Notes under the pieces: model-generated
The model's database searches: none
Told to the model about the DNA's origin: nothing
The model's input: only the letters and a program-made list of their open reading frames with translations
Part shown: piece by piece, positions 4,399 through 56,408 of the stretch
Layout: each line of letters starts with the position of its first letter
Numbering within the stretch: the stretch's first letter is position 1
Made by a program: the position numbers and the translations under genes
DNA from: Minisyncoccota bacterium
GTDB taxonomy: Bacteria; Patescibacteriota; Minisyncoccia; Phycocordibacterales; CSBR16-193
Direction: 5' to 3'
Assembly: GCA_040905715.1 (NCBI GenBank)
Contig: JBBDRA010000003.1
Span: 71,075-135,074, forward strand
Length of the DNA: 64,000 nt

Positions 4399-5829
4399 GT
4401 GTTTTTGACCGCCATGATCGCCAAATACCGTTTCAGCGCACTTATCATCTTACTCCTCCTTGTTGGGCTGGGGTATTTCATCTATTCAACGCAGACCACT
4501 GAAGATTCAAATTTTCCGTTTCAACTCGGACTTGATCTTTCCGGCGGAACCGAGCTTATTTACGAGGCAGATGTTTCTGAGCTATCCGAAGGTGATGTGG
4601 ATGGCGCAATGCAGAGTCTGCGTGAAGTTATAGAGCGCCGAGTGAACGCGCTTGGAACCGGAAGTCCTATCGTTCAGACCGAGCAGGCCGGAGTCCTTAC
4701 CGGTGAAATATCTCATCGGCTGGTTGTGGAGTTGCCGGGAGTGACGAATATTGAAGAGGCAACAGCGATGATCGGTGAGACGCCGGTACTTGAATTTAAG
4801 TTATTGAGAGAGGGTGCGTCTCCTATTGACGGTGCAGGAATAGAAGTGCAAACAAGTGACGGGACCAGCACGCTTCAAGCGCAGAATGGTACTTCTACCG
4901 ATGCTTCATCAGACGATCGATACGAAGCTACCGGCTTAACCGGTCGTTATCTTAGCGATGCTCAGCTTCAGTTTAATAACGTTACCGGTGAGCCGCTCGT
5001 GACGCTTCAGTTCAATAGCGAAGGCGCGGATCTGTTCGCCGATATAACTCGCGAGAACCAAGGAAGGATCCTGGCGATATTCCTGGATGGTGTGCCAATT
5101 TCACAGCCGGTTATCCGTGACACGATCACGGGCGGTCAGGCACAGATATCAGGCGGATTTGGTGGGCCGGACGGTGTTGAGGAAGCGCGTGAGCTCATGA
5201 ATAACCTTAAGTTCGGCGCACTGCCAATGCCGGTTTCGCTTGTGAACACGCAGACGATCGGTCCGACACTTGGTCAAGAGACATTGAATGCGGGTGTTTT
5301 TGCCGGTTTGATCGGTCTGGCTGGAGTGACACTGTTCTTACTTGCGTGGTATCGGCTCCCCGGACTCGTTGCTACTGTGTCACTTGTACTCTATATAGTA
5401 CTTATGCTGGCCCTTTTTAAGATTTTGGGCATTACTCTGACCGCAGCCGGTATTGCCGGCTTTATTCTCTCGGTCGGTATGGCGGTTGATGCAAATGTTT
5501 TAATATTTGAGCGTCTCAAAGAAGAGCGTCGGGCTGGTCGCGATCTTCAGGATGCAATTCACGCCGGTTTTGCTCGGGCATGGCCGTCGATCCGTGACGC
5601 TAACATCTCAAGCATCATCAGTGCGGTGATTCTGTACTGGATGGGCACATCACTGGTAAAAGGGTTTGCACTGGTGTTCGGGATCGGTGTGCTGGTATCT
5701 ATGCTCACCGCTATCACGGTGAGCCGCACATTACTGCTTGCACTCGCGAGTGAACAGGTAGGGAAGACCACCGCTTTGCTTTTTGGTTCCGGAGCTGAAA
5801 CAACGAGATCGCAGGATACGAAATACTAA
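4399..5829 (+). CDS. secD: Protein translocase subunit SecD
   Basis: It has an N-terminal TM helix, a large periplasmic domain and a C-terminal six-TM bundle ('LIFERLKEE'). The secF gene follows it. Confidence 0.85.
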   Translation: MFLTAMIAKYRFSALIILLLLVGLGYFIYSTQTTEDSNFPFQLGLDLSGGTELIYEADVSELSEGDVDGAMQSLREVIERRVNALGTGSPIVQTEQAGVLTGEISHRLVVELPGVTNIEEATAMIGETPVLEFKLLREGASPIDGAGIEVQTSDGTSTLQAQNGTSTDASSDDRYEATGLTGRYLSDAQLQFNNVTGEPLVTLQFNSEGADLFADITRENQGRILAIFLDGVPISQPVIRDTITGGQAQISGGFGGPDGVEEARELMNNLKFGALPMPVSLVNTQTIGPTLGQETLNAGVFAGLIGLAGVTLFLLAWYRLPGLVATVSLVLYIVLMLALFKILGITLTAAGIAGFILSVGMAVDANVLIFERLKEERRAGRDLQDAIHAGFARAWPSIRDANISSIISAVILYWMGTSLVKGFALVFGIGVLVSMLTAITVSRTLLLALASEQVGKTTALLFGSGAETTRSQDTKY

Positions 5830-5878: not shown

Positions 5879-6814
5879 ATGTTTATCACTCAGAACAAAA
5901 CAATATTCTTTGCTGTTGCCGGCGGACTTGCGGCGCTCGCTCTTGTAGCGATCCTGTCGTTCGGTCTTAAATTCGGCATTGAATTTACCGGTGGTTCTAC
6001 TTTTGAGGTGAGATACGAGACTGAGCGCCCGGCCCAGGAACGAGTTGAAGGAGTCATCACGCCGCTATTCGATCGCAGCGTATCTGTGCGCCCGGCGGGT
6101 GACAGCTCATACATTATCCAGACACCGTTTGTTCAAGACGATGAGCACAGCGAGGTTATGGAACAGCTGTCATTCGGGGGAGAGTTGGAGGTGATTGAAG
6201 AGCGATTCAGTTCGGTTGGCCCGTCTATTGGCGAGGAGCTTCGGGCGAAAGCGCTAGTCGCGATCGCTTTGGTCGTGACCGGTATCGTGCTGTTCGTGGC
6301 ATTTAGTTTTCGGCGGGGAATGGATACAGAGGGCAACTATCTTAACGAAGGAGTTTCATCGTGGTATTACAGCCTGGCGGCGATCGTTGCGCTCATCTTT
6401 GATATTCTTATTCCGACCGGTTTGTTCGCGCTTTTGGGCGTTGCTCTTGGGGCAGAAGTTGATGTTCTGTTTGTGACGGCTCTGCTCGCGATCATCGGTT
6501 TCTCAGTGAACGATACGATCGTGGTCTTTGACCGGGTTCGTGAAAATTTGCAAGTTAATCGAGAGACAAATCACAAAGAGAATTTTGATGAAACAGTTGG
6601 CAAAAGTTTGACTCAAAGTTTTGCCCGCTCGATCAATACATCGCTTACTACGTCGCTTGTGCTGATCGCGTTGTATGTATTCGGTGGTGCCGTAACCCAG
6701 GCGTTCGCGTTGACGTTGCTGGTCGGCGTACTTGCCGGTACATATTCCTCCTTATTTATCGCCTCACCGCTCTTGGTCAAATTTCAAGAATGGGGAGAAA
6801 AGAGAAATTCATAA
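5879..6814 (+). CDS. secF: Protein translocase subunit SecF
   Basis: It shows SecF membrane topology with conserved 'GFSVNDTIVVFDRVREN' and lies immediately downstream of secD. Confidence 0.85.
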   Translation: MFITQNKTIFFAVAGGLAALALVAILSFGLKFGIEFTGGSTFEVRYETERPAQERVEGVITPLFDRSVSVRPAGDSSYIIQTPFVQDDEHSEVMEQLSFGGELEVIEERFSSVGPSIGEELRAKALVAIALVVTGIVLFVAFSFRRGMDTEGNYLNEGVSSWYYSLAAIVALIFDILIPTGLFALLGVALGAEVDVLFVTALLAIIGFSVNDTIVVFDRVRENLQVNRETNHKENFDETVGKSLTQSFARSINTSLTTSLVLIALYVFGGAVTQAFALTLLVGVLAGTYSSLFIASPLLVKFQEWGEKRNS

Positions 6815-7079: not shown

Positions 7080-8549
<1,470 letters not shown>

Positions 8550-8769
8550 ATTTTTCTGAGTTCGCCACCGGTGAACTCAGTGAAACGGTCGGTCCTGCAC
8601 CTCGATCGAGTGCAGGAAAAATCCTTCGTGGCGTATGTCATGAAGGGCAAAGGTTTTGGTCTCGGAGCCTCAAGTCGAGATCATGTGGACGGAACGAAAG
8701 AGAGAAGAATTGTCTAAGATCCTCATTGTTGACAATCAGCAATGGGGATTTTGTATTCAGCTTCTTCCC

Positions 8770-8798
8770 TTTACAATAGAGCGTATGTATGCTATACT
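8770..8798 (+). promoter_or_regulatory. Candidate sigma70 promoter (TTTACA-N17-TATACT) for the small-ORF/FlgM-like operon
   Basis: TTTACA sits at 8770-8775 and TATACT at 8793-8798 with a 17-nt spacer. Confidence 0.4.
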
Positions 8799-8853
8799 TG
8801 CTTTCTATTGTTAAAGTTGTTCTTTTTAAACCACCTACGCTCACGGAGGATCC

Positions 8854-9030
8854 ATGAGTACACCCCAACACATTCGTAGTCTTCTGGGTATGAAGAAGGT
8901 TGCGGAAAAACAGCTTCGAGAGCAAGAGCAGAATCCGGATCGCCGCGGTGGCGAACCGGAAGCAATCGGTACTATTGCCAAGCGTGAGCTGGATCGCGTG
9001 ATCCACGAGCATCGCAAGGCAAGCAACTGA
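8854..9030 (+). CDS. Small hypothetical protein (58 aa); not in the ORF track because it is under 60 aa
   Basis: It runs ATG 8854 to TGA 9030 (MSTPQHIRSLLGMKKVAEKQLREQEQNPDRRGG...). It sits directly upstream of the FlgM-like gene, whose GGGAGG site follows its stop codon. Confidence 0.3.
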   Translation: MSTPQHIRSLLGMKKVAEKQLREQEQNPDRRGGEPEAIGTIAKRELDRVIHEHRKASN

Positions 9031-9042
9031 GGGAGGATCGCT

Positions 9043-9243
9043 ATGTCAGGAACGGACTCAGGGGATTCCCAAGGACGGGAACGGAATGATGATCTCGATA
9101 TGGATCGGGCGGCACAGACAGTGCGTCGGGTGAAAGCTCAGATCGAACAAGGGACGTATCCGGACATTCCCGAAAATCACATGCTCGAGCAGTGCTTGGT
9201 TCCGCTTGCTCGGGACATGGGATATGCCCATCTCACTGATTGA
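9043..9243 (+). CDS. FlgM-like anti-sigma-28 factor domain protein (66 aa)
   Basis: The C-terminal 'VRRVKAQIEQGTYPDIPENHMLEQCL' matches the FlgM C-terminal sigma-28-binding motif (RV..LK.AI..G.Y.VD...IAD.L). It is preceded by GGGAGG with a 7-nt spacer. Confidence 0.5.
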   Translation: MSGTDSGDSQGRERNDDLDMDRAAQTVRRVKAQIEQGTYPDIPENHMLEQCLVPLARDMGYAHLTD

Positions 9244-9310
9244 TCCTGGGGCGGAGGCGGAGGAGAAAGAAGCATCTGTCGGAGGGTCCATTTGGTCCGA
9301 TCGCTGATGC

Positions 9311-9347
9311 AAGACCCTGATAGGCAACTATCAGGGTCTTTTTTTGT
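9311..9347 (+). terminator. Rho-independent terminator after the FlgM-like gene
   Basis: A 13-bp stem (aagaccctgatag / ctatcagggtctt) with a gcaa loop is followed by TTTTTT. Confidence 0.7.
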
Positions 9348-9351
9348 ACTA

Positions 9352-9380
9352 TTGACAATATACTATATTAATAGTATGAT
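9352..9380 (+). promoter_or_regulatory. Sigma70-type promoter (TTGACA-N17-TATGAT) for the GH108 muramidase operon
   Basis: TTGACA sits at 9352-9357 and TATGAT at 9375-9380 with a 17-nt AT-rich spacer. Confidence 0.5.
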
Positions 9381-9434
9381 TATATCAGATATAACCAGGG
9401 TGGTTATTGCCGTTATTTTCAAACAGGGAGTTTA

Positions 9435-10040
9435 TTGATGCGATATACGATGCTGCTTCTTACGTTAGTTGTCACGACTATGGTTGCGACAACCGCTTTC
9501 GCAGACGAAACACCGGAGACGACGTTTCAGAAAGCGACGGCATTTGTGCTCGATTCTGAGGGTGGCTACAGCGATCATGTTGCAGACACCGGAGGTGCTA
9601 CCAACTATGGAGTTACTCAGGTCGCCTACGATTCCTGGCAAGATTCTTTGGATAAGAGGCGTCGACCGGTTTCCCAGATCGAGTTGTGGGAAGTCAAAGG
9701 CATTTATTATGCTTACTGGCTTGAGGCTCGTTGCTATGAGATCGAGGAGGTTTCTCCGGCGCTAGCGATCGCTCATTTTGACTGGGCGATCAATGCGGGG
9801 CCATCACAGGCGATGCGAACGCTTCAGCGGTGCATCGGGACCGAAGCTGACGGCATTTGGGGTCCGAAAACCCGTGCTGCATTTCTGAAAAGCGATCCGG
9901 CAGAGGTGCTCGAGGAGTATTTCGAGCGCCGCGAGCGGTTCTACCGGAGTCAGCCTGAAGAGCGACGCGACGCGTTTCTCTCTGGCTGGCTGAATAGACT
10001 CGATAAACTTCGAAATTTTCTATCAGATAGGGAAGAATAA
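9435..10040 (+). CDS. Secreted peptidoglycan hydrolase: GH108 lysozyme domain + PG_binding_3 domain
   Basis: It has a signal peptide (MMRYTMLLLTLVVTTMVATTAFA). The GH108 signature is 'EGGYSDHVADTGGATNYGVTQ'. The C-terminal 'GIWGPKTRAAF' fits a PG-binding-3 domain. Confidence 0.7.
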   Translation: MMRYTMLLLTLVVTTMVATTAFADETPETTFQKATAFVLDSEGGYSDHVADTGGATNYGVTQVAYDSWQDSLDKRRRPVSQIELWEVKGIYYAYWLEARCYEIEEVSPALAIAHFDWAINAGPSQAMRTLQRCIGTEADGIWGPKTRAAFLKSDPAEVLEEYFERRERFYRSQPEERRDAFLSGWLNRLDKLRNFLSDREE

Positions 10041-10207
10041 TGGTGCTCAGAATTGAAGAAAACGAAACCGGCGGATGGAATGCGGAAGTTGTACATGAAG
10101 AAGATCAGCAGATTAAGGTGGCAAAGAAGGACGGGGTTGGGGGAGTCTTCCTCTGCCTTCTTGTCGCAACCCTGGTCATCCTGATTCTCTTGGCAGCTGT
10201 CTGGTAA
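10040..10207 (+). CDS. Small membrane protein (55 aa) with a C-terminal TM helix, translationally coupled to the muramidase (stop/start overlap TAATG)
   Basis: The ORF MVLRIEENETGGWNAEVVHEEDQQIKVAKKDGVGGVFLCLLVATLVILILLAAVW is followed by a strong terminator. It is not in the ORF track because it is under 60 aa. Confidence 0.4.
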   Translation: MVLRIEENETGGWNAEVVHEEDQQIKVAKKDGVGGVFLCLLVATLVILILLAAVW

Positions 10208-10229
10208 TGAGAATGAATCGACTCTCGAA

Positions 10230-10262
10230 GAACGTTTGCTCCGGCAAGCGTTCTTTTTTATT
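10230..10262 (+). terminator. Rho-independent terminator
   Basis: A 10-bp stem (gaacgtttgc / gcaagcgttc, one G-U pair) with a tccg loop is followed by TTTTTTTATTTTT. Confidence 0.7.
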
Positions 10263-10402
10263 TTTATTGCATTGATTATGACGGTTTCTTGTCTGAAAGA
10301 GGGATTTTTGGTAGTGTAGGCGGGTGTGAGGGTATTTCTATATGGCGTGTAAGTAAACTTGCTTTGCCGGCGCTCGGACGAAACGATAACTAGTTCTCGA
10401 TC

Positions 10403-10721
10403 GTTCCTCACTTGGCAAAGTAAGCAGAGCTTTCACACGCTTCACTCAGACGAAATGCCGCTTGGCGCTTGAATGCATTTGCCTTTCAGAAATTATTTGT
10501 GTGCAAGCACCCAAAATTTCTTCAATGCAAATGCGCTCACTATCGTGAGCAGCGCCTCGCTCCTCATTTGCGCGTGTAAGCAAAGCTTTCACGCGCGGCA
10601 CTCGCGAGTCATGCGAGAGCGAGCACAGCTCTCTTCAGCTTCACTCGGGTAACACTGTGAGCAAGCTCCCGTGTTACCCTCGCTTGCTGAAGATCTGGCT
10701 CTCGCACGACGTCGCTCACTT
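10403..10721 (+). repeat. Cluster of tRNA-5'-half-like repeats (CTCAYTTG-N6-TAAGCAAAGCTT) and palindromes upstream of tRNA-Ile
   Basis: Units start at about 10406 and 10562. Each mimics the tRNA leader 'gctcacttg' + acceptor 6-mer + 'TA' + a D-arm-like 'AGCaaAGCTt'. Several perfect hairpins lie between the units. Confidence 0.6.
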
Positions 10722-10797
10722 GCGCGTGTAGCTCAGCTGGTAGAGCATTCGACTGATACTCGAAAGGTCCCAGGTTCGATCCCTGGCACGCGCACCA
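10722..10797 (+). tRNA. tRNA-Ile (anticodon GAT), CCA encoded
   Basis: A manual cloverleaf fold gives acceptor GCGCGTG/CACGCGC, D-arm GCTCAGCTGGTAGAGC, anticodon loop CTGATAC and T-arm CCAGGTTCGATCCCTGG. The length is 76 nt. Confidence 0.9.
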
Positions 10798-10802
10798 TAA
10801 AA

Positions 10803-10838
10803 TAAATAACCGGCATTTTGTGCCGGTTATTTATTTTA
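10803..10838 (+). terminator. Bidirectional rho-independent terminator after tRNA-Ile
   Basis: The stem aataaccggca / tgccggttatt is flanked by A-rich sequence upstream and a T-rich tract downstream. Confidence 0.7.
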
Positions 10839-11065
10839 TAGACGACAGTCAGGGATCGAACCGTGAAGGGGACGGGAAACGGTAGTTTCCCGTGGAGGAA
10901 AATACTAAAAACCGAGAGGTTTTTAGAGCGCAGCGCAAGCGAGCAGTGAGTGTCCCTGGCACGCGCACAAGAATTCTCCCTAGGTTTAACCTAGGGAGAA
11001 TTTATTTGTATGAAAGTTCAAATTCTACACTGGATACAAAATACTGAATACACTATACTGTTTCT

Positions 11066-12028
11066 ATGATGATCGTATTCTGGACAATTGTTTTTATTGC
11101 CGCACTGATCGCGTTGGTCAAAGGGGCGGACTGGCTGATAGGCGGAGCCGAGCGTATCGGTCTTGCTGTCGGCATGTCTTCCTTTATTATCGGTGTGACG
11201 ATCGTTGCTATCGGAACATCGTTCCCGGAGCTTATTGCTTCAATCTCTGCCCTTATGAAGGGAGTGCCGGAAGTGATCGTCGCGAACGCTGTTGGTTCGA
11301 ATATTACAAATATTCTTTTGGTTATCGGTCTGTCTGCTCTTATAGGCCGTCAGCTTTCGGTTGAGAAGAATCTGATAGATCTTGATCTTCCGCTTTTAGC
11401 AGCGGGGACGGGAATCTTTCTAGTTGTTGCTTGGGATGGAACGATCAACCCTCTCGAGTCGATCGTCCTTGTCCTTAACTTCGCTGTGTATCTCGTTTAT
11501 ACGGTCACTCAACGAGACAGGACGGTGGTGCATTTACCGGAAGAAGAGATTTCCAAAGAAGAGCAAAAGCATCCGAAACGTTACATAAAAAAAGACATAG
11601 TGCTTATAATTTGTGGAGCAGCCAGTCTTGCTCTGGGTGCTCATTTTCTTATCGATTCGATCATTGTTTTCTCTACCCTTCTTGGGTACTCAACGGGATT
11701 GATCACTATCACTGCGGTGGCGTTGGGAACATCTCTGCCGGAACTTGCTGTTTCAGCTCGGGCGGTAATTCAAGGTAAAACGGAAGTAGCAGTAGGAAAT
11801 ATCTTTGGATCAAACGTTTTTAATATCCTCATGGTTGTCGGTGTTCCGGGTATTTTTAGTACGTTGCCGCTCGATGAGCAGACGCTCGCTGTCGGTGTCC
11901 CGGTTCTCGCATTGGCTACTTTCCTTTTTGTTATTTCAGGTATTTCACGATGCATTCATGCATGGGAGGGAAGCTTCTATCTTTCGCTGTACATACTCTT
12001 TCTCGCTAAAGTGTTCGGATTGTTTTAA
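11066..12028 (+). CDS. Ca2+/Na+ antiporter, CaCA family (YrbG-like)
   Basis: It has two internal alpha-repeats ('GTSFPELIASISALMKG' and 'GTSLPELAVSARAVIQG') and 10 TM helices. Confidence 0.7.
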   Translation: MMIVFWTIVFIAALIALVKGADWLIGGAERIGLAVGMSSFIIGVTIVAIGTSFPELIASISALMKGVPEVIVANAVGSNITNILLVIGLSALIGRQLSVEKNLIDLDLPLLAAGTGIFLVVAWDGTINPLESIVLVLNFAVYLVYTVTQRDRTVVHLPEEEISKEEQKHPKRYIKKDIVLIICGAASLALGAHFLIDSIIVFSTLLGYSTGLITITAVALGTSLPELAVSARAVIQGKTEVAVGNIFGSNVFNILMVVGVPGIFSTLPLDEQTLAVGVPVLALATFLFVISGISRCIHAWEGSFYLSLYILFLAKVFGLF

Positions 12029-12073
12029 GCAGTATATTGCTAATATGGCTAGAACATGGTATTGTATTTTCTT

Positions 12074-13492
12074 ATGCCATTTAGAAAAAAAACAAAAATT
12101 GTTGCAACGATAGGTCCGGTAAGTCAGGACGAAAAAACTCTCGAGAAATTAGCCAAGGCCGGAATGAATGTGGTGCGTTTAAATTTCTCTCACGGTGATT
12201 TTGAAGAACACCAGGGCAAGGTGGACGCAGCCCGTGCTGTCGAAAAAACGATCGGCCGACCGATCGCTATTCTCCAAGACCTCTCCGGTCCGAAGATCAG
12301 GATCGGAGATTTTTATAAAGAAAAGGTTGTACTCAAGAAGGGAAGCGAATTTACTCTTACAACTCAAAAGATCGTAGGCGATGAAACAAAGGCGCATGTG
12401 AACTATAAGTTGCTACCCAAGGAACTCGCTAAGGGTGACCAGGTATTACTTGATGATGGAAAAAAACGCCTCACCGTGGTTCGTACTACAAAAACAGATG
12501 TGGTCTGCAAGGTTGTCGTAGGCGGTGAAACAAAAGGTCGCCGTGGAGTTAATCTCCCGGGTGCAAATATTTCTATCGATGCTCTAACACCTAAAGACAA
12601 AAAAGATCTTGAATTCGGTATTACAAACGACGTTGATTTCATTGCGCTCTCATTTGTTCGTCGGCCGAAGGATGTGACAAAGCTCCGCACTATTCTCAAG
12701 AAGCGTGGTTCGGATGCGATGATCATCTCGAAGATCGAGACACAGGAAGCTATAACAAACATCGATGAGATCATTGAATTATCTGACGGTATCATGGTTG
12801 CCCGCGGTGACCTAGCTATCGAAGTGCCGGCTGAAAAAGTTCCGGAGTTGCAGAAAGAGATCATTGCTAAATGTAATCGTCTTGGTAAGCCGGTTATTAC
12901 CGCCACTCAGATGCTTGAGAGCATGATCCACTCACCGGTACCGACACGCGCTGAGGTGTCCGACGTTGCTAATGCTATTTTTGACGGTACCGACGCGGTT
13001 ATGCTCTCGGAGGAAACAACGCTTGGTGAATATCCGGTTGAGGCGGTCGAGACAATGGCCCGTGTTGCTCAAGAGGTGGAAAGTAATTATAAAGAGCGTT
13101 ATGCACTAAACGGAGGCGTGGAAATTAGTACGACTGATGCCGTAACTACATCGGTTGTAGAAACATCTCACGATATAGATGCCACTCTTATTGTTGCGGC
13201 TACGCTAAAAGGATTCAGTGCTCGCATGCTCTCACGGCACAAGCCGCTTCCGCTGATCCTCTCGCTTACACCAAACAAGAAAACCTGGCACCAGCTCCAG
13301 TTGTCGTTTGGTGTCTTTCCGGTTCTCACAAAAGAGTTAACGTCGGTTGAAGATGTTTTTGACGCGGTACGAGTTCAGGCACCTAAGTTCAAGTTAGCAA
13401 AGAAAGGCGACAAGGTTGTCGTGGTTGCTGGTGTGCCGTTCTCTTCCAAGTCACCTATGGAGACGAACATGATGCTGGTGGAAACGGTATAA
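12074..13492 (+). CDS. pyk: Pyruvate kinase
   Basis: The N-terminus 'KTKIVATIGP' is PK-like and 'MVARGDLAIE' is the PK active-site region. The ORF track starts at 12056, but the ATG at 12074 fits PK N-termini. Confidence 0.85.
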   Translation: MPFRKKTKIVATIGPVSQDEKTLEKLAKAGMNVVRLNFSHGDFEEHQGKVDAARAVEKTIGRPIAILQDLSGPKIRIGDFYKEKVVLKKGSEFTLTTQKIVGDETKAHVNYKLLPKELAKGDQVLLDDGKKRLTVVRTTKTDVVCKVVVGGETKGRRGVNLPGANISIDALTPKDKKDLEFGITNDVDFIALSFVRRPKDVTKLRTILKKRGSDAMIISKIETQEAITNIDEIIELSDGIMVARGDLAIEVPAEKVPELQKEIIAKCNRLGKPVITATQMLESMIHSPVPTRAEVSDVANAIFDGTDAVMLSEETTLGEYPVEAVETMARVAQEVESNYKERYALNGGVEISTTDAVTTSVVETSHDIDATLIVAATLKGFSARMLSRHKPLPLILSLTPNKKTWHQLQLSFGVFPVLTKELTSVEDVFDAVRVQAPKFKLAKKGDKVVVVAGVPFSSKSPMETNMMLVETV

Positions 13493-16348: not shown

Positions 16349-17227
16349 TCAGCCAGAGAAGACCAGTATGCCGTTGCGCCCGCTTGCGTTGCCATCCCGT
16401 CGATGCGAATGCCATTGGTGCGCACCCGTAGGGGAAAGATCGCTTGCGGTGCAAATGGTGTCGTATTCAGCACGTACGTTGTATTCCCTGAACTGTGCCT
16501 GCACCAGCGCACGCACATCGATACAGCCTTCCCTCCTTCGCCCCGGGATCAGGGTGTTGGTAACGAAGCTGCCCCAGCGGGTCTGGATGTAGTTCGTGAG
16601 AATTTCGTTAAAGGTGCCGTAATCGGCGCGGTCGAACGGGTGCTTGAACATCGAGGCGCGGATGCCGCAGACGCTGTGCGCCGAGAGATCTTCCGGTGAG
16701 CAGCCCGGGTAAGACGCGAATTGAGTCATCAGGCGTTGGACCACCGAGTCAAAGTCTCGGGACGATGAGGGTGCTCGGTGAAGGTTGTGGTCAACCAAGG
16801 AATTTCGTCCGGTGTGGAGCACGTATACTTCACCGGTTCGGTGGCACTTTACCACGGTCGTGTGGCAGTCTGCGGTCCGAAACAGTGCTCCTACCGTCGG
16901 CGAGTCAGGAGGAAGTATCACTCCGTCAGTCGCTACTCCTCGGTGAATGGTCACATTGCCGATCGAAATAGTTGGCTCAAACTCGTCGGCGGTAGTGATC
17001 CGGGTGTTGCTTTCGCTGAGATTGGGGACCAGGATGTCCGTGAGTCCGTTCTCTTCAGCGATCGCTTGAAGGGTCTCCAGGTCTGCTCGTGCGACGTTGC
17101 TCTCTCCGGTGGGGTCATCACCGATCCAGCGGTAGCGAAAGTCCAGTGGTTTTCCGTACAGCTGAATGTTGACATCTCCATGGACGCGCAGTCGCTTGGT
17201 CGGCTTGGTCTGTAGGGTTGGTGGCAT
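16349..17227 (-). CDS. YfiH/PgeF-family (DUF152, 'laccase-domain') purine nucleoside phosphorylase / peptidoglycan editing factor
   Basis: It carries the 'RTADCHTTVV' (TADC.P-like) motif and a C-terminal 'HSHRRDG..GR' like the YfiH 'SYRR' region. Its GC content is higher than the flanking genes, so many spurious ORFs overlap it. Confidence 0.55.
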   Translation of the reverse strand: MPPTLQTKPTKRLRVHGDVNIQLYGKPLDFRYRWIGDDPTGESNVARADLETLQAIAEENGLTDILVPNLSESNTRITTADEFEPTISIGNVTIHRGVATDGVILPPDSPTVGALFRTADCHTTVVKCHRTGEVYVLHTGRNSLVDHNLHRAPSSSRDFDSVVQRLMTQFASYPGCSPEDLSAHSVCGIRASMFKHPFDRADYGTFNEILTNYIQTRWGSFVTNTLIPGRRREGCIDVRALVQAQFREYNVRAEYDTICTASDLSPTGAHQWHSHRRDGNASGRNGILVFSG

Positions 17228-20092: not shown

Positions 20093-22003
20093 ATGAGTAA
20101 TGAAGAGCGTGTAACGTACTTTGCGAAAACTGATTCACGCAATCGCCAAAAAACCTTCGGCATTAAAGCGAAGGACCGGAGCCGTCATGTCTATGTGATC
20201 GGAAAGACCGGCATGGGAAAGTCCACTCTGCTTGAGAACATGGCGATCCAGGACCTCCGCAATGGCGAGGGTATCGCTTTCATTGATCCGCACGGCAAGA
20301 CCGCTGATCTCTTGCTGGACTATGTACCGGAAGAGCGTCTCGATGATGTGGTATATTTTGCCCCGTTCGACATGGAGCATCCGCTCTCTTTCAACGTGAT
20401 GGAGGATGTCGGGGCTGATAAGCGCCACTTGGTAGCAAGTGGCTTGATGAGTAGTTTCAAAAAGATCTGGATAGACGCGTGGTCCGCACGAATGGAGTAC
20501 ATTTTAAATAACATTCTCTTAGCGCTTTTGGAGTACCCCGACTCAACCTTGATGGGAGTGAACCGAATGCTTGCTGATAAAGATTATCGAAAGAAGGTGG
20601 TAGAGAACGTCACTGACACCTCGGTCCGGGCGTTTTGGACCGATGAGTTTGCCAAGTACGGCGAGCGGTATATGCAGGAGGCCGGCGCCGCTATCCAGAA
20701 CAAGATCGGTCAGTTTATTTCCAATCCGGTCATTCGCAATATCATTGGTCAGCCACATTCCAGTTTTGATCTGCGTCGGATCATGGATGAGCGTAAGATC
20801 GTGATCATTAACCTCTCCAAGGGGCGAGTCGGCGAGACGAACGCCAACCTCTTGGGCGGTATGCTTATCACCAAAATGTATCTCTCTGCCATGTCGCGCG
20901 CCGACACTGACCCGGAGACCATGGAGAAGTTGCCGAACTTCTATCTTTTTGTGGATGAGTTCCAGTCCTTCGCCAACGAGTCCTTTGCCGACATTCTCTC
21001 CGAGGCACGTAAGTACAAGCTGAACCTCACCATGGCTCACCAGTATATCGAGCAGATGGATGAGACCGTGCGCGCCGCGGTCTTTGGCAACGTCGGTACT
21101 ATGATCACCTTCCGTGTGGGAGCATATGACGCTGAGTTCCTCGAGAAAGAATTCGAGCCGGTCTTTGATGCCAACGATCTGGTGAACCTCGGCTTTGCGC
21201 AGATCTATTTAAAGCTGATGATCGACGGTGTGTCCTCGCCGCCATTCTCAGCTATTACCTTGCCACCGTTAGAAGAAAAAGACACCTCGCACAGAAACGA
21301 GGTTATTGATGCGTCACGGGCGAACTATTCGAAGTCGCGCGAGGAGGTAGAAAAGTCTATTAACGAATGGCAAGGTATTCATGTGAAAGACTATGAAGAA
21401 TCACCGGCGGATAAGCAGCAGAAGAAGAAACCCAAAAGGGACCAGCAGAAGGATCAGCAGAAAGACCCGTCAAAAGCACAAGGTACCGACCGGCAGCGAG
21501 GGGAAGCAAGACCGCAATCACAACACTCCGGGCACAGCAACGGGGCTTCTCAAAAGCCGGCGGAAGGAAAGAGTAGCGATGAGTTGCGTGCCGCGCTTGC
21601 AGCTATCAGCAAGCAGGTAAGTCAAGGTCAGAAGACAGATCAGACGACCAATCAGAAGGAAAATAAATCTAAACAAGAGAATAGTGCTTCTCGATCGGAT
21701 CGGAAAAGACCACGAAAAGATACGTCCGGCACATCTCTCAAAGATGCGCTTAAAGAGCGAGGCCTGCTTGGTAGCAACGACTCAGCACCAAAGGAAAAAG
21801 AAGAAGTGAAAGAACAGCCGGACAAGAGCGAAAAAATGAACGAAAAGAAGAGCAAGGATGAAAGAGACAACAAAGAAAAAGATCAACAAGAGAGTATTCC
21901 GGAGGAAAAACCAAAAGAAAAGAAATTTCGAGAAGTCCCCCGAGAAGTCCTCGATGAGCTTCTTGGTGCTGACGAAGATGACCCAAAGAACGCAAAACGC
22001 TAA
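20093..22003 (+). CDS. VirD4/TraG/TraD-like (TrwB_AAD_bind-type) P-loop ATPase with a ~200-aa disordered K/E/D/Q-rich C-terminal tail
   Basis: It has Walker A 'IGKTGMGKST' and Walker B 'FYLFVDEFQSF'. Its overall architecture resembles type IV coupling proteins. The tail (residues ~440-636) is low-complexity. Confidence 0.45.
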   Translation: MSNEERVTYFAKTDSRNRQKTFGIKAKDRSRHVYVIGKTGMGKSTLLENMAIQDLRNGEGIAFIDPHGKTADLLLDYVPEERLDDVVYFAPFDMEHPLSFNVMEDVGADKRHLVASGLMSSFKKIWIDAWSARMEYILNNILLALLEYPDSTLMGVNRMLADKDYRKKVVENVTDTSVRAFWTDEFAKYGERYMQEAGAAIQNKIGQFISNPVIRNIIGQPHSSFDLRRIMDERKIVIINLSKGRVGETNANLLGGMLITKMYLSAMSRADTDPETMEKLPNFYLFVDEFQSFANESFADILSEARKYKLNLTMAHQYIEQMDETVRAAVFGNVGTMITFRVGAYDAEFLEKEFEPVFDANDLVNLGFAQIYLKLMIDGVSSPPFSAITLPPLEEKDTSHRNEVIDASRANYSKSREEVEKSINEWQGIHVKDYEESPADKQQKKKPKRDQQKDQQKDPSKAQGTDRQRGEARPQSQHSGHSNGASQKPAEGKSSDELRAALAAISKQVSQGQKTDQTTNQKENKSKQENSASRSDRKRPRKDTSGTSLKDALKERGLLGSNDSAPKEKEEVKEQPDKSEKMNEKKSKDERDNKEKDQQESIPEEKPKEKKFREVPREVLDELLGADEDDPKNAKR

Positions 22004-22021
22004 TTATATACCGTTTGGATA

Positions 22022-23356
22022 ATGTCTTGGAAGATCGCACAAACACTCATTCTTATTGCGATTTTCTCTGTGCCGGTGTTTTCACTCCAGGCAGATCATG
22101 CGATCAATATAAATACAGCGAGTGTGGAGATGCTCCAAGAGCTCACCGGTGTCGGAGAAGTAAAGGCCGGTGACATTGTTGCGTACAGAGATAATAATGG
22201 CCACTTTAGTTCGATCAGCGAGATTGAAGAAGTGAGCGGTATCGGCCCGGCAACCTTCAACGGTATAAAAGACCACATTACGGTAAGCGGTTCTTCCGAT
22301 ACTGATACAGACGACACTGATGACGACGATGATACAGATACCAAGGAGGAGGAAAACACCACGGACGACTCAAAGAGTGAAGAAGACGCAGAGAGAAGTA
22401 GTTCCAGCTCCGGCGGTAGCGATGACTACGAGAGCAAGATGGAGTCACCACTTTCGGTCTCGCTCGATCTCTCACCCTCTGTTGCTGTGGCCGGAGCCCC
22501 GGTAACCTTTATGGTCGATGCACGCATTGAAGAGAGTGAGGCAAACACAACTTCCTTTGATTGGAATCTGGGCGATGGTACCCAGGCACAGGGAAAGGAA
22601 GTGACGCATATCTATGCAGCTCCGGGTACGTACGTTGTGGTGATCAATGCTGAAACACGCACAAAAGAAGCGCGGATCAAAGAGACGATCACGGTCCACG
22701 AAGGAGGTGTATCGATACGTGACGTCTCGCTTTCTCCCGATGGGTCGATCACCCTCACCAACAATGACGTTCAGGAATATCTGCTGACCGGTTGGCATCT
22801 TTCAGCCGGTGGGCAGACATATACGATCCCCGACGATACATTCATAGCCGGAGGCAGCTCGATCACCTTGCCTTCGGTGGTTACCGGCCTGGAGCTTGCC
22901 CGGCCGGATGTCTCACTCTTGTATCCGAACGGCGATCTAGCCGATAAGTATAATACACAGGAGCCAAAACAGGCTGATGCCTCACAGACTAGATTAGAGA
23001 CCAACCCAAGCAATTCAGCGCCTGTTCAGTCGGCAGCTGAGAATGCGGTTGCCGAAGAAGAAGACGGTGAAGCGGGTGATGAAGGAGGCGGGGAAGTACG
23101 AGGCACGACAAGCGTTGCCGCTTCGGTCTCGCTTTCTGATTCATCCGGCAAGCTCTGGCCGTGGCTTGCCGGCTTGCTTGGCGTCGTTGCGCTGGGTATA
23201 CTCGGGTTTATCGTAGCAAAGCCCCAGGAGGGTCTTGAGGAAGGTCTTGTAGCCCAAGAGACAGCAGAAACAGAGATAGCAGCAGGTGATTCCGCTGATG
23301 ATTACGAGATCTTAGAGAGTCTTCCTAACGACGAGAGGCAGAAACGAAACGTATGA
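22022..23356 (+). CDS. ComEA-like helix-hairpin-helix DNA-binding protein fused to an acidic linker, a PKD domain and a lamin-tail (LTD) domain, with a C-terminal membrane anchor
   Basis: It has a signal peptide and a ComEA HhH segment 'INTASVEMLQELTGVGEVKAGDIVAYRDNNGHFSSISEIEEVSGIGPATF'. The PKD domain reads 'NLGDGTQAQGKEVTHIYAAPGTYVV' and the LTD reads 'LLTGWHLSAGGQTYTIP'. A TM helix sits at the C-terminus. Confidence 0.6.
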   Translation: MSWKIAQTLILIAIFSVPVFSLQADHAININTASVEMLQELTGVGEVKAGDIVAYRDNNGHFSSISEIEEVSGIGPATFNGIKDHITVSGSSDTDTDDTDDDDDTDTKEEENTTDDSKSEEDAERSSSSSGGSDDYESKMESPLSVSLDLSPSVAVAGAPVTFMVDARIEESEANTTSFDWNLGDGTQAQGKEVTHIYAAPGTYVVVINAETRTKEARIKETITVHEGGVSIRDVSLSPDGSITLTNNDVQEYLLTGWHLSAGGQTYTIPDDTFIAGGSSITLPSVVTGLELARPDVSLLYPNGDLADKYNTQEPKQADASQTRLETNPSNSAPVQSAAENAVAEEEDGEAGDEGGGEVRGTTSVAASVSLSDSSGKLWPWLAGLLGVVALGILGFIVAKPQEGLEEGLVAQETAETEIAAGDSADDYEILESLPNDERQKRNV

Positions 23357-55923: not shown

Positions 55924-56402
55924 GAAGGTGATATGTTGGACGATCGCTGAGTTTTTTTTGCAAGAACTTAGAGGAAAGTCCGGACACTTATTTCTGTTCC
56001 GTCTTTGACGGATAACGGATCTAAAATGGTAGCGGCTCCGACGCTTCGGCATAGCCGAGGTGCGGAGCTCCGACTCCATCATATGATGGACGTCGGAGGT
56101 AACACCCGTCATCCGCCCCAGGCGGAAGAGGTGCGAGCAGTGACGCTCGATTCCGAAAGGATAGAGATTCCAGGAATGGAATAACCTTTATATAAGCTTG
56201 AGGTTTCCTTAAACGAAATTGAAGGGTGAAACGGCTAAATCCTTACCCAAGTGCAAGGCCGTACTCCAATGCTCTTGTAACAACAAGGTTTCATTGGTTT
56301 GTGCCGCACGAGCTGTCTGGTAACAGACAGCCCAGATAAATGATCGTCCAGGGCCCTCTTTTAGGGGTTCGGACAGAATCCGGCTTACAGACATATCGCT
56401 TC
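55924..56402 (+). ncRNA. rnpB: RNase P RNA (bacterial type A-like) with extra inserted helices
   Basis: Conserved P4 strands are GGAAAGTCCGGAC (5') and ACAGAATCCGGCTTA (3'). An AGGGTGAAACGG (P10/11-like) motif is present. P1 pairs GAAGGTGATATGT with ACATATCGCTTC, and a terminator follows. Confidence 0.75.
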
Positions 56403-56408
56403 AAAACA

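Follow-up and report, generated by a model that had tools for sequence, protein, structure and literature searches.

Introduction

The closest solved relative of the enzyme considered here is SagA of Brucella abortus. SagA is a two-domain enzyme (residues 1–174) followed by a 48-residue linker (175–222) and a C-terminal transmembrane (TM) helix (223–245), which is believed to keep the enzyme active only close to the membrane; its catalytic residues are Glu17, Asp26, and Thr31 (PMC8334348). A second kind of system, the type 10 secretion system (T10SS), combines a holin and a peptidoglycan hydrolase that has no signal sequence and relies on the holin for passage through the membrane, and it usually lies next to a cargo gene (PMC13284979). 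GH108 genes have already been reported in metagenome-assembled genomes (MAGs) of Patescibacteria as peptidoglycan-degrading capacity (PMC9868632). Here we describe a locus from a MAG of Candidatus Paceibacterota (Parcubacteria; candidate phyla radiation, CPR), in a 64-kb stretch of DNA that we call the window. A GH108 muramidase gene is accompanied there by three small open reading frames (ORFs), named ORF58, ORF66, and ORF55 for their lengths in amino acids. We think it moderately probable that the four genes form an accessory cell-wall-hydrolase cassette with an exported GH108 muramidase, a split SagA-type anchor, and a probable phage-related ancestry. A preliminary description of the same DNA had suggested a holin/endolysin-like or type 10 secretion-like module beside a FlgM-like anti-sigma factor.

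Results

That the long ORF encodes a muramidase with a GH108 and a PG_binding_3 domain, as first described, was borne out by both Pfam profiles, each of which scored above its gathering cut-off. Glyco_hydro_108 (PF05838) matched at 3.7e-19 (69.5 bits against a cut-off of 21.2, profile positions 2–85 of 85) and PG_binding_3 (PF09374) at 1.7e-11 (44.6 bits against 24.6, positions 2–75 of 76). The top sequence match in the PDB was B. abortus SagA (7dnp, 2.5e-19). SagA also headed the Foldseek search (TM-score 0.61/0.68), whose top 15 matches were all of GH108 type (SagA, NMB1012, Sen1395, TtsA, and 2nr7), and the next-best solved relatives after it were Neisseria NMB1012 and Salmonella TtsA/Sen1395. 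The motif EGGYsdhvaDtGGaT supplies Glu41, Asp50, and Thr55. These residues align with the catalytic E17/D26/T31 of SagA and are invariant in two alignments of relatives. Judged from its sequence, the 200-residue product is a true N-acetylmuramidase of the GH108 + PG_binding_3 kind.

The muramidase is 100% identical to an NCBI protein from a 523-kb contig of the same organism, and a search of 5.8 billion clustered proteins gave only two non-self matches to it, at 41% and 31% identity. The nearest relatives, at 31–41% identity, are endolysin-like genes without a signal; two of them occur in phage-type settings, one on a lysis-cassette-like contig and the other on a viral contig. The enzyme also matched PHROG endolysin family 315 (1e-37) and 425 phage records, all at less than 35% identity. 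A further 80 relatives from metagenomes, at 31–40% identity, were checked for size, signal peptide, and downstream ORFs. The soluble PHROG 315 endolysins of aquatic metagenomes and viral contigs are the closest sequences to the window enzyme (31–41% identity) and have the same domains, but they are only about 170–180 amino acids long and have no N-terminal signal. Where small ORFs follow them, these have N-terminal helices and are unrelated to ORF55. At the locus of the closest non-self relative (P0002, 41% identity, without a signal peptide; L001, 145–1259), three small ORFs that overlap come after the gene, and two of these have a pair of predicted membrane helices, a layout typical of a phage lysis cassette. 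A different, membrane-bound architecture of the GH108 family was seen at three metagenome loci (L045, L068, and L079), where proteins of about 450–490 amino acids join GH108 to an N-terminal domain of about 290 amino acids with several TM helices and a coiled coil.

The window enzyme carries an N-terminal extension not seen in its closest relatives. Residues 1–22 comprise a basic n-region, a hydrophobic core of about 18–19 residues (Kyte–Doolittle hydropathy, KD, 1.87), and a candidate cleavage site between AFA and DE. Alanine and threonine make up 44% of the N-terminal segment, and the AlphaFold2 (AF2) model gives the signal as a separate, low-confidence helix at residues 3–19. Hydropathy and the AxA site thus support the export signal proposed earlier, and we consider the predicted signal real because a chance extension would be unlikely to show n-h-c organization together with an AxA site. 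A cleavable Sec signal peptide and a signal anchor are both possible readings of it. Of the two candidate starts, ATG 9438 is preferable to TTG 9435 and is the first ATG past the predicted transcription start of the muramidase promoter, P2. Public annotations start the gene at 9450 (196 amino acids) or 9480 (186 amino acids). The extension is missing from P0002 and P0003, from the viral-contig protein, and from almost all the 80 metagenome relatives; the signal-less relatives begin a few residues before EGGY.

At its other end, the muramidase ORF stops about six residues past the region that aligns with SagA. ORF55 follows at once, in the −1 frame relative to the muramidase, with the ATG sharing base 10040 with the muramidase TAA (TAATG), so that its first base is also the final one of the muramidase stop. 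ORF55 consists of a 34-residue acidic segment and one TM helix that reaches the very C-terminus (KD 3.28). This overlap and the hydropathy agree with the earlier account of a translationally coupled, single-helix mini-protein; stop/start overlaps are common elsewhere in the window. In size, order, and position, ORF55 matches the linker and C-terminal helix of SagA. The SagA layout recurs in a metagenomic relative (L066), whose linker is rich in Pro and Asp and whose helix lies at the extreme C-terminus. Because of the SagA and L066 layout, the position at which the enzyme ORF stops, and the adjoining linker and helix in the −1 frame, ORF55 is best read as the putative detached linker and C-terminal membrane anchor of a SagA-type muramidase. 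In a SagA-type protein, the linker and helix belong to the same polypeptide as the enzyme; here they form a separate −1-frame ORF, and the two ORFs jointly reproduce the layout. We infer that a single-base deletion within 10031–10040 would suffice to split an ancestral fusion and would yield exactly the present arrangement. The ORF55 sequence is identical in three assemblies, so the split between the two genes is not an assembly error. ORF55 had no match in Pfam (E ≤ 1), NCBIfam, PHROGs, or PADLOC, and so belongs to no holin family in these collections; a word-index search returned only ORF55 itself.

The frame of ORF55 is closed upstream by a TAG at 10028–10030. A programmed −1 frameshift from the muramidase into ORF55 was also considered and is unlikely, given this stop and the lack of a slippery heptamer.

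SagA and the window enzyme share the two-domain layout of hydrolase plus peptidoglycan-binding module and the conserved Glu/Asp/Thr catalytic residues, but identity in the Foldseek alignment is 28%, and the window anchor is a separate, frame-shifted, and translationally coupled ORF. The window enzyme has an N-terminal Sec-type signal, whereas SagA is described with a C-terminal TM helix only (PMC8334348). There is no PhiA/MliC-like inhibitor gene near the window enzyme. A VirD4-like ATPase gene 10 kb downstream of the muramidase may matter since SagA serves a type IV secretion system. It encodes a VirD4/TrwB-like coupling ATPase (636 amino acids) and is followed by one for a ComEA-like HHH_3 + PKD protein (444 amino acids), the pair lying at 20093–23356.

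The translation signals of the cassette set it apart from its surroundings. The 3' tail of the 16S rRNA (8539–8553) reads GGAAAUAUCCAUUU, where the Rfam consensus is GGAUCACCUCCUUU, and contains no CCUCC anti-Shine–Dalgarno (anti-SD) motif; about half of Parcubacteria are without this motif (PMC9297842). Three of the four cassette genes, including ORF66 with the GGGAGG site noted in the preliminary description, are nevertheless preceded by strong SD-like sites (Table 1), and ORF55 has a weaker G-rich site (−4.8 kcal/mol). For the 48 background genes of the window, the duplex energy with a canonical anti-SD averaged −0.97 kcal/mol (standard deviation 2.4). Energies of −6 kcal/mol or below were found for 3/4 cassette genes against 1/48 background genes (Fisher p = 7e-4). 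Nearly all of the surrounding genes are SD-less, and many have a TATACT/TATAGT-like box 5–7 nt before the ATG, in a leaderless-like arrangement (e.g., 11066, 53355, 62984, and 38186); the leaders of the cassette genes, in addition, are about 50 nt long. To us the translation signals of the cassette look foreign. SD-led genes in a genome without an anti-SD, together with endolysin-like relatives, two of them in phage-type settings, indicate that the cassette is probably of foreign, phage-related ancestry. The single outside match of ORF66, a repeat in a phage protein, also counts toward foreign ancestry. One other strong SD-like site occurs in the window (AGGAG, −9.0 kcal/mol), ahead of the gene at 16349–17227 (−), which encodes a Cu-oxidase_4 (YfiH/PgeF-like) protein and lies between murD and a murC-like ligase gene.

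ORF66 had been described as a FlgM-like protein, a label that the searches do not sustain. Pfam FlgM (PF04316) reached 14.4 bits (E 0.046) against a cut-off of 25, over 16 residues (24–39). Nothing was found for ORF66 in NCBIfam, PHROGs, or PADLOC, in the PDB by sequence at E ≤ 10, or by Foldseek at E ≤ 10 with its AF2 model, a low-information two-helix peptide (helices 15–35 and 45–58; predicted local distance difference test, pLDDT, 68). An exhaustive phmmer search of 1.84 billion representatives with ORF66 found no FlgM-family protein at E ≤ 0.001 and returned only ORF66 itself and a protein of 1908 amino acids (P0006, E 3.7e-4). The latter has four or five tandem repeats, K[LI]EKGTYPDIPxAE, that match QIEQGTYPDIPE in ORF66, so that the residues with a weak likeness to FlgM are more like a phage protein repeat. 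In L090, an IMG/VR viral contig (7012–12738), the 1908-residue repeat-bearing ORF comes after tail sheath and tail tube genes, and the protein appears tape-measure-like, in that it sits at the position of a myovirus tape measure gene. A word-index search with ORF66 found only itself, and a scan of viral contigs found no further match. Neither a sigma factor gene nor a flagellar context was detected in the window: a tblastn search with approximate RpoD and FliA probes, which serves as a screen only, gave noise, and there were no flagellar or type III export genes among the annotated neighbours in the window.

ORF58 and ORF66 share a reading frame and are separated by a TGA (9028–9030) and four codons, GGG AGG ATC GCT (9031–9042). 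TGA is an ordinary stop here, used by 11/48 genes. Joining the two ORFs gave a FlgM score of 13.2 bits and no new match. If they were once one gene of 129 amino acids, the ‘SD’ of ORF66 would be Gly-Arg codons. ORF58 had no match in Pfam, NCBIfam, PHROGs, or PADLOC and was found only in MAGs of the same species. ORF58 and ORF66 are thus best described as predicted small, soluble orphan proteins that are not demonstrably FlgM, and the anti-sigma label appears unwarranted. An antiphage defence system was also considered for the locus and set aside, PADLOC having returned no match.

None of the three small ORFs has a non-self family homologue; all were found in the same species only. Outside the species we searched 83 GH108 loci by tblastn (one JGI contig, one viral contig, one contig of a related genome, and 80 metagenome loci) and obtained noise but no relative of any small ORF. 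For ORF55, whose conservation in homologous loci had been proposed as a check on the preliminary description, the count at these distant loci is accordingly 0/83. One related genome was found with a SecF query (81% identity), and its contig breaks off directly behind secF. On current data, the cassette appears to be species-specific.

The four ORFs were confirmed on the forward strand at the positions first given, and two promoter-like sites and two terminators lie where they had been placed (Table 1). Two separate transcription units, each with its own promoter and terminator, are therefore supported, one for ORF58 and ORF66 and one for the muramidase and ORF55. From P1, the leader of ORF58 would be about 50 nt long. 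The terminators, placed by the motif scan at 9311–9340 and 10227–10256, fold at −23.7 kcal/mol (T1; z −6.4 against shuffled controls) and −19.1 kcal/mol (T2; z −3.9). Promoter-like sites number three in the region, no excess over a shuffled expectation of 2.3, so the support for the promoters comes from their quality and position and not from statistics.

Overall identity to a sister strain (GCA_040876875.1) is about 99%, but about 24/190 positions (about 12%) of the spacer between ORF66 and the muramidase differ in that strain, with indels. The sister strain still forms a 14-bp T1 hairpin through changes on both arms. There are two differences in ORF66, both synonymous, and none in ORF58, the muramidase, or ORF55. 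The contrast between near-invariant ORFs and a divergent spacer points to constraint on the ORFs and on the terminator. The divergent spacer corresponds to window positions 9271–9346 and to 9920–10000 of L002.

Table 1. Features of the cassette and its immediate surroundings (window coordinates; promoters are putative).
Feature	Position	Strand	Details
secD	4399–5829
secF	5879–6814
16S rRNA	7091–8553
Cassette	8770–10262
Promoter P1	8770–8798	+	TTTACA-17-TATACT with TG extension; 10/12 in consensus scan
SD-like site GGAGG	8845–8849	+	4 nt before ORF58 ATG; −9.5 kcal/mol with canonical anti-SD
ORF58	8854–9030	+	58 amino acids; hydrophilic orphan
SD-like site GGGAGG	9031–9036	+	6 nt before ORF66 ATG; −11.8 kcal/mol
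ORF66	9043–9243	+	66 amino acids; hydrophilic orphan
Terminator T1	9311–9347	+	13-bp stem, 4-nt loop, T-run; ends ORF58–ORF66 unit
Promoter P2	9352–9380	+	TTGACA-17-TATGAT; 11/12 in consensus scan; muramidase–ORF55 unit
SD-like site GGGAG	9426–9430	+	Muramidase; −7.5 kcal/mol
Muramidase	9438–10040	+	200 amino acids from ATG 9438 (201 from TTG 9435)
N-terminal export signal	9438–9503	+	MRYTMLLLTLVVTTMVATTAFA; predicted cleavage between AFA and DE
ORF55	10040–10207	+	55 amino acids
Terminator T2	10227–10262	+	13-bp stem, 4-nt loop, T-run
Weakly repetitive stretch	Between cassette and tRNA-Ile		About 460 nt
tRNA-Ile(GAU)	10722–10797
Na/Ca exchanger	11066–12028
Pyruvate kinase	12056–13492

The cassette had been described as occupying the place of the 16S–23S spacer. 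It does lie directly 3' of the 16S gene and ahead of the usual first spacer tRNA, but no 23S or 5S rRNA gene occurs within the 64-kb window, and the rRNA genes are therefore unlinked here, as is common among Patescibacteria (bioRxiv 10.1101/705046). Flanking phage structural, replication, or integration genes were not found; the immediate neighbours are housekeeping and envelope genes, and a PHROGs scan of five downstream ORFs gave one match, to an auxiliary glycosyltransferase family. Envelope genes are abundant nearby (ftsW, murD, a murC-like ligase, a PgeF-like protein, DUF4015, and glycosyltransferases). The junction of the 16S 3' tail with the cassette is identical across four assemblies. 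The stretch from this tail through the muramidase gene and ORF55 is borne out by independent assemblies, two Logan contigs among them. A chimeric assembly at the 16S gene is unlikely, given the identical junction and the SD-less style on both flanks.

Downstream of the cassette, pieces of the tRNA-Ile are repeated within 10395–10975: a 16-nt copy of its 5' end with upstream context lies at 10563–10578 and a 19/21 copy of its 3' end at 10953–10973. Weak direct repeats with a spacing of about 155 nt are found at 10401–10447 and 10557–10603, and the sister MAG has a scaffold gap (a run of N) exactly at 10262–10777. Integration at the tRNA-Ile was rejected because the copy of the tRNA 3' end is only 156 nt downstream, so that the cassette is not bracketed. 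Two minus-strand ORFs, at 8638–9012 (124 amino acids) and 9950–10411 (153 amino acids), were dismissed as shadows; they have no family match and overlap plus-strand genes. Elsewhere in the window, an RNase P class A RNA at 55928–56403 scores only just above the Rfam gathering cut-off (100.5 against 100), and its match spans 476 nt against a model of 367 positions, which suggests an unusual or insert-bearing RNase P RNA.

Discussion

The core enzyme of this cassette is, on the domain and fold matches, of an ordinary, known kind: a predicted secreted GH108 lysozyme nearest to SagA-type autolysins. What surrounds it is mildly unusual in three ways, namely a signal peptide that its closest relatives are missing, a coupled mini-ORF that resembles a tail anchor split off from its enzyme, and genes led by SD sites in a genome that is otherwise SD-less. 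If the cassette works as we picture it, the muramidase would be made from its own sigma-70-type promoter and exported by the Sec pathway through the 22-residue signal, which would probably be cleaved between AFA and DE. The enzyme would then dock on peptidoglycan through its C-terminal PG_binding_3 domain and cut MurNAc-GlcNAc bonds with the Glu41/Asp50/Thr55 triad. ORF55 would be made by termination–reinitiation and sit in the membrane, where it may hold or modulate the enzyme by helix–helix contact with the signal segment. The upstream unit, transcribed separately, would encode ORF58 and ORF66 as small soluble orphans. The target is the least certain part of this picture; given the many envelope genes nearby, we think it somewhat more likely that the enzyme locally opens or turns over the cell's own wall than that it attacks a host wall.

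Several observations weigh against this picture of an exported enzyme with a split anchor and phage-related ancestry. The idea that the anchor arose by fission draws only on architecture and position, and an unsplit close relative of the muramidase–ORF55 pair was not found in our searches. Basic residues (KVAKKD) precede the helix of ORF55 and favour an N-in orientation, opposite to that of an extracellular tether; such an orientation would suggest a cytoplasmic, membrane-tethered peptide rather than an extracellular tether. The AF2 model of the muramidase is only moderate (pLDDT 69), and the start at 9480 in one public annotation would remove the signal. Finally, the GC content and codon usage of the cassette are host-like. 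The acquisition would therefore not be recent, and a recent transfer from a compositionally different donor was rejected on the same ground, but an old acquisition does not account for the persistence of the SD sites.

The main rival explanation is that the cell has kept a phage-type lysis or release module, in which ORF55 would be a holin-, pinholin-, or releasin-like trigger of enzyme release, either for programmed lysis or for a type 10-like release. GH108 endolysins with signal-arrest-release (SAR) domains do exist, for example gp61 of phage N4 (bioRxiv 10.1101/2025.11.12.688109), the founding GH108 muramidase, in which the GH108 domain also comes after an N-terminal membrane segment. The 44% Ala/Thr content of the muramidase N-terminal segment would fit this explanation, as would the match to an endolysin family and the small overlapping membrane ORFs behind the gene of the closest relative. 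In addition, SAR endolysins are freed by the gp25 releasin of phage Mu, an acidic cytoplasmic protein that is tethered to the membrane and has hardly any periplasmic part (PMC9239132). ORF55 is of similar general topology, with a single helix joined to an acidic soluble segment and hardly anything outside the membrane, although the likeness to the Mu gp22/gp25 pair is one of topology only. However, the helix of ORF55 is C-terminal and that of gp25 N-terminal, ORF55 has no holin or DUF2730 match, and it does not have the charged C-terminal tail of holins. The N-terminal segment of the window enzyme has a good AxA site of signal-peptidase type, a feature for which a SAR domain has no need. The flanks of the locus hold no prophage genes; its neighbours are secDF, 16S, tRNA-Ile, the Na/Ca exchanger, and pyruvate kinase. 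We regard this explanation as unlikely.

The type 10 variant of this rival fares no better. TtsA/Sen1395 (PDB 6V40 and 6V3Z) belong to the same GH108 + PG_binding_3 family, matching at 1e-7 by sequence and again in Foldseek, and these and the chiWXYZ-type systems resemble the window locus in their phage-endolysin ancestry and their chromosomal position outside a prophage. But TtsA and ChiP have no signal sequence and need a holin, as do T10SS hydrolases generally, whereas the window enzyme has a signal of its own. The window locus is also without a holin, spanin, or cargo gene, and no adjacent cargo such as a toxin or chitinase was found among the neighbours just listed. The NCBIfam model for a ‘holin-associated N-acetylmuramidase’ (NF040573) scored 43.8, far below its cut-off of 240. 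With an autonomous signal on the hydrolase, no holin features in ORF55, and no cargo gene next to it, the holin/endolysin or type 10 reading of the preliminary description could not be upheld.

Another explanation that seems unlikely to us is that an episymbiotic CPR cell secretes the muramidase as a weapon to breach the wall of its host, with the small ORFs in immunity or regulatory roles. The enzyme is predicted to be secreted and has a peptidoglycan-binding domain, its gene appears accessory and species-specific, with two non-self matches in so large a protein collection, and GH108 in Patescibacteria has been linked to peptidoglycan degradation, as cited above. Nevertheless, nothing in the sequence speaks to target specificity, SagA, the nearest characterised relative, acts on the wall of its own producer, and essentially no part of ORF55 is exposed beyond the membrane that could neutralise an extracellular enzyme.

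It is quite improbable, in our view, that the muramidase alone is real and that the three small ORFs are non-functional remnants or chance ORFs. All three are orphans without a family match, ORF58 and ORF66 form one frame broken by a single TGA, as in a gene disrupted by a nonsense mutation, and ORF55 may itself be a product of fission. Yet the ORFs have ATG starts, strong and well-spaced SD-like motifs (ORF58 and ORF66) or a weaker G-rich site with coupling by overlap (ORF55), and host-like codon usage. They are also near-invariant between strains that diverge by about 12% in the spacer, with only synonymous changes in ORF66; the helix of ORF55 is very hydrophobic, and a dedicated promoter and terminator bracket ORF58 and ORF66. 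The weakest explanation, a sigma/anti-sigma wall-remodelling module in which ORF66 would be a FlgM-type anti-sigma-28 factor regulating the muramidase operon, we hold to be very unlikely: the sigma-D/FlgM pair controls autolysin genes in Bacillus subtilis, and ORF66 is small like FlgM, with a helix, a Gly-x-Tyr motif under the weak Pfam match, and a second helix, compatible in its AF2 model with the C-terminal half of FlgM, but the match is below the family threshold and 16 residues long, no solved structure was matched by sequence or fold, a phage protein repeat matches the same residues better, no partner sigma factor, flagellar, or type III export gene was seen in the 64 kb, and the muramidase promoter is of near-consensus sigma-70 and not sigma-28 type.

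We give little credence to a more far-reaching version of the phage-related ancestry, in which a domesticated phage-derived module would keep the muramidase and its anchor deliberately as two coupled polypeptides, be translated by way of SD sites in a cell without an anti-SD, and use ORF58 and ORF66 as regulators. If true, it would point to an unrecognised way of reading SD-like leaders in Parcubacteria that have no anti-SD, or to poor or conditional initiation as a control on a dangerous enzyme. How SD-led genes are translated in an organism without an anti-SD is a question that the cassette raises in any case, and SD-led genes in SD-less, largely leaderless lineages could be a cheap mark of acquired genes. 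For the locus itself, our analysis removes an unsupported label, that of anti-sigma-controlled type 10 secretion in a CPR bacterium. If the muramidase and ORF55 do represent a split SagA-type protein, a change of one base would have turned a membrane-tethered autolysin into a freely secreted enzyme, which would be relevant to wall remodelling in ultra-small episymbionts or to their attack on the walls of their hosts.

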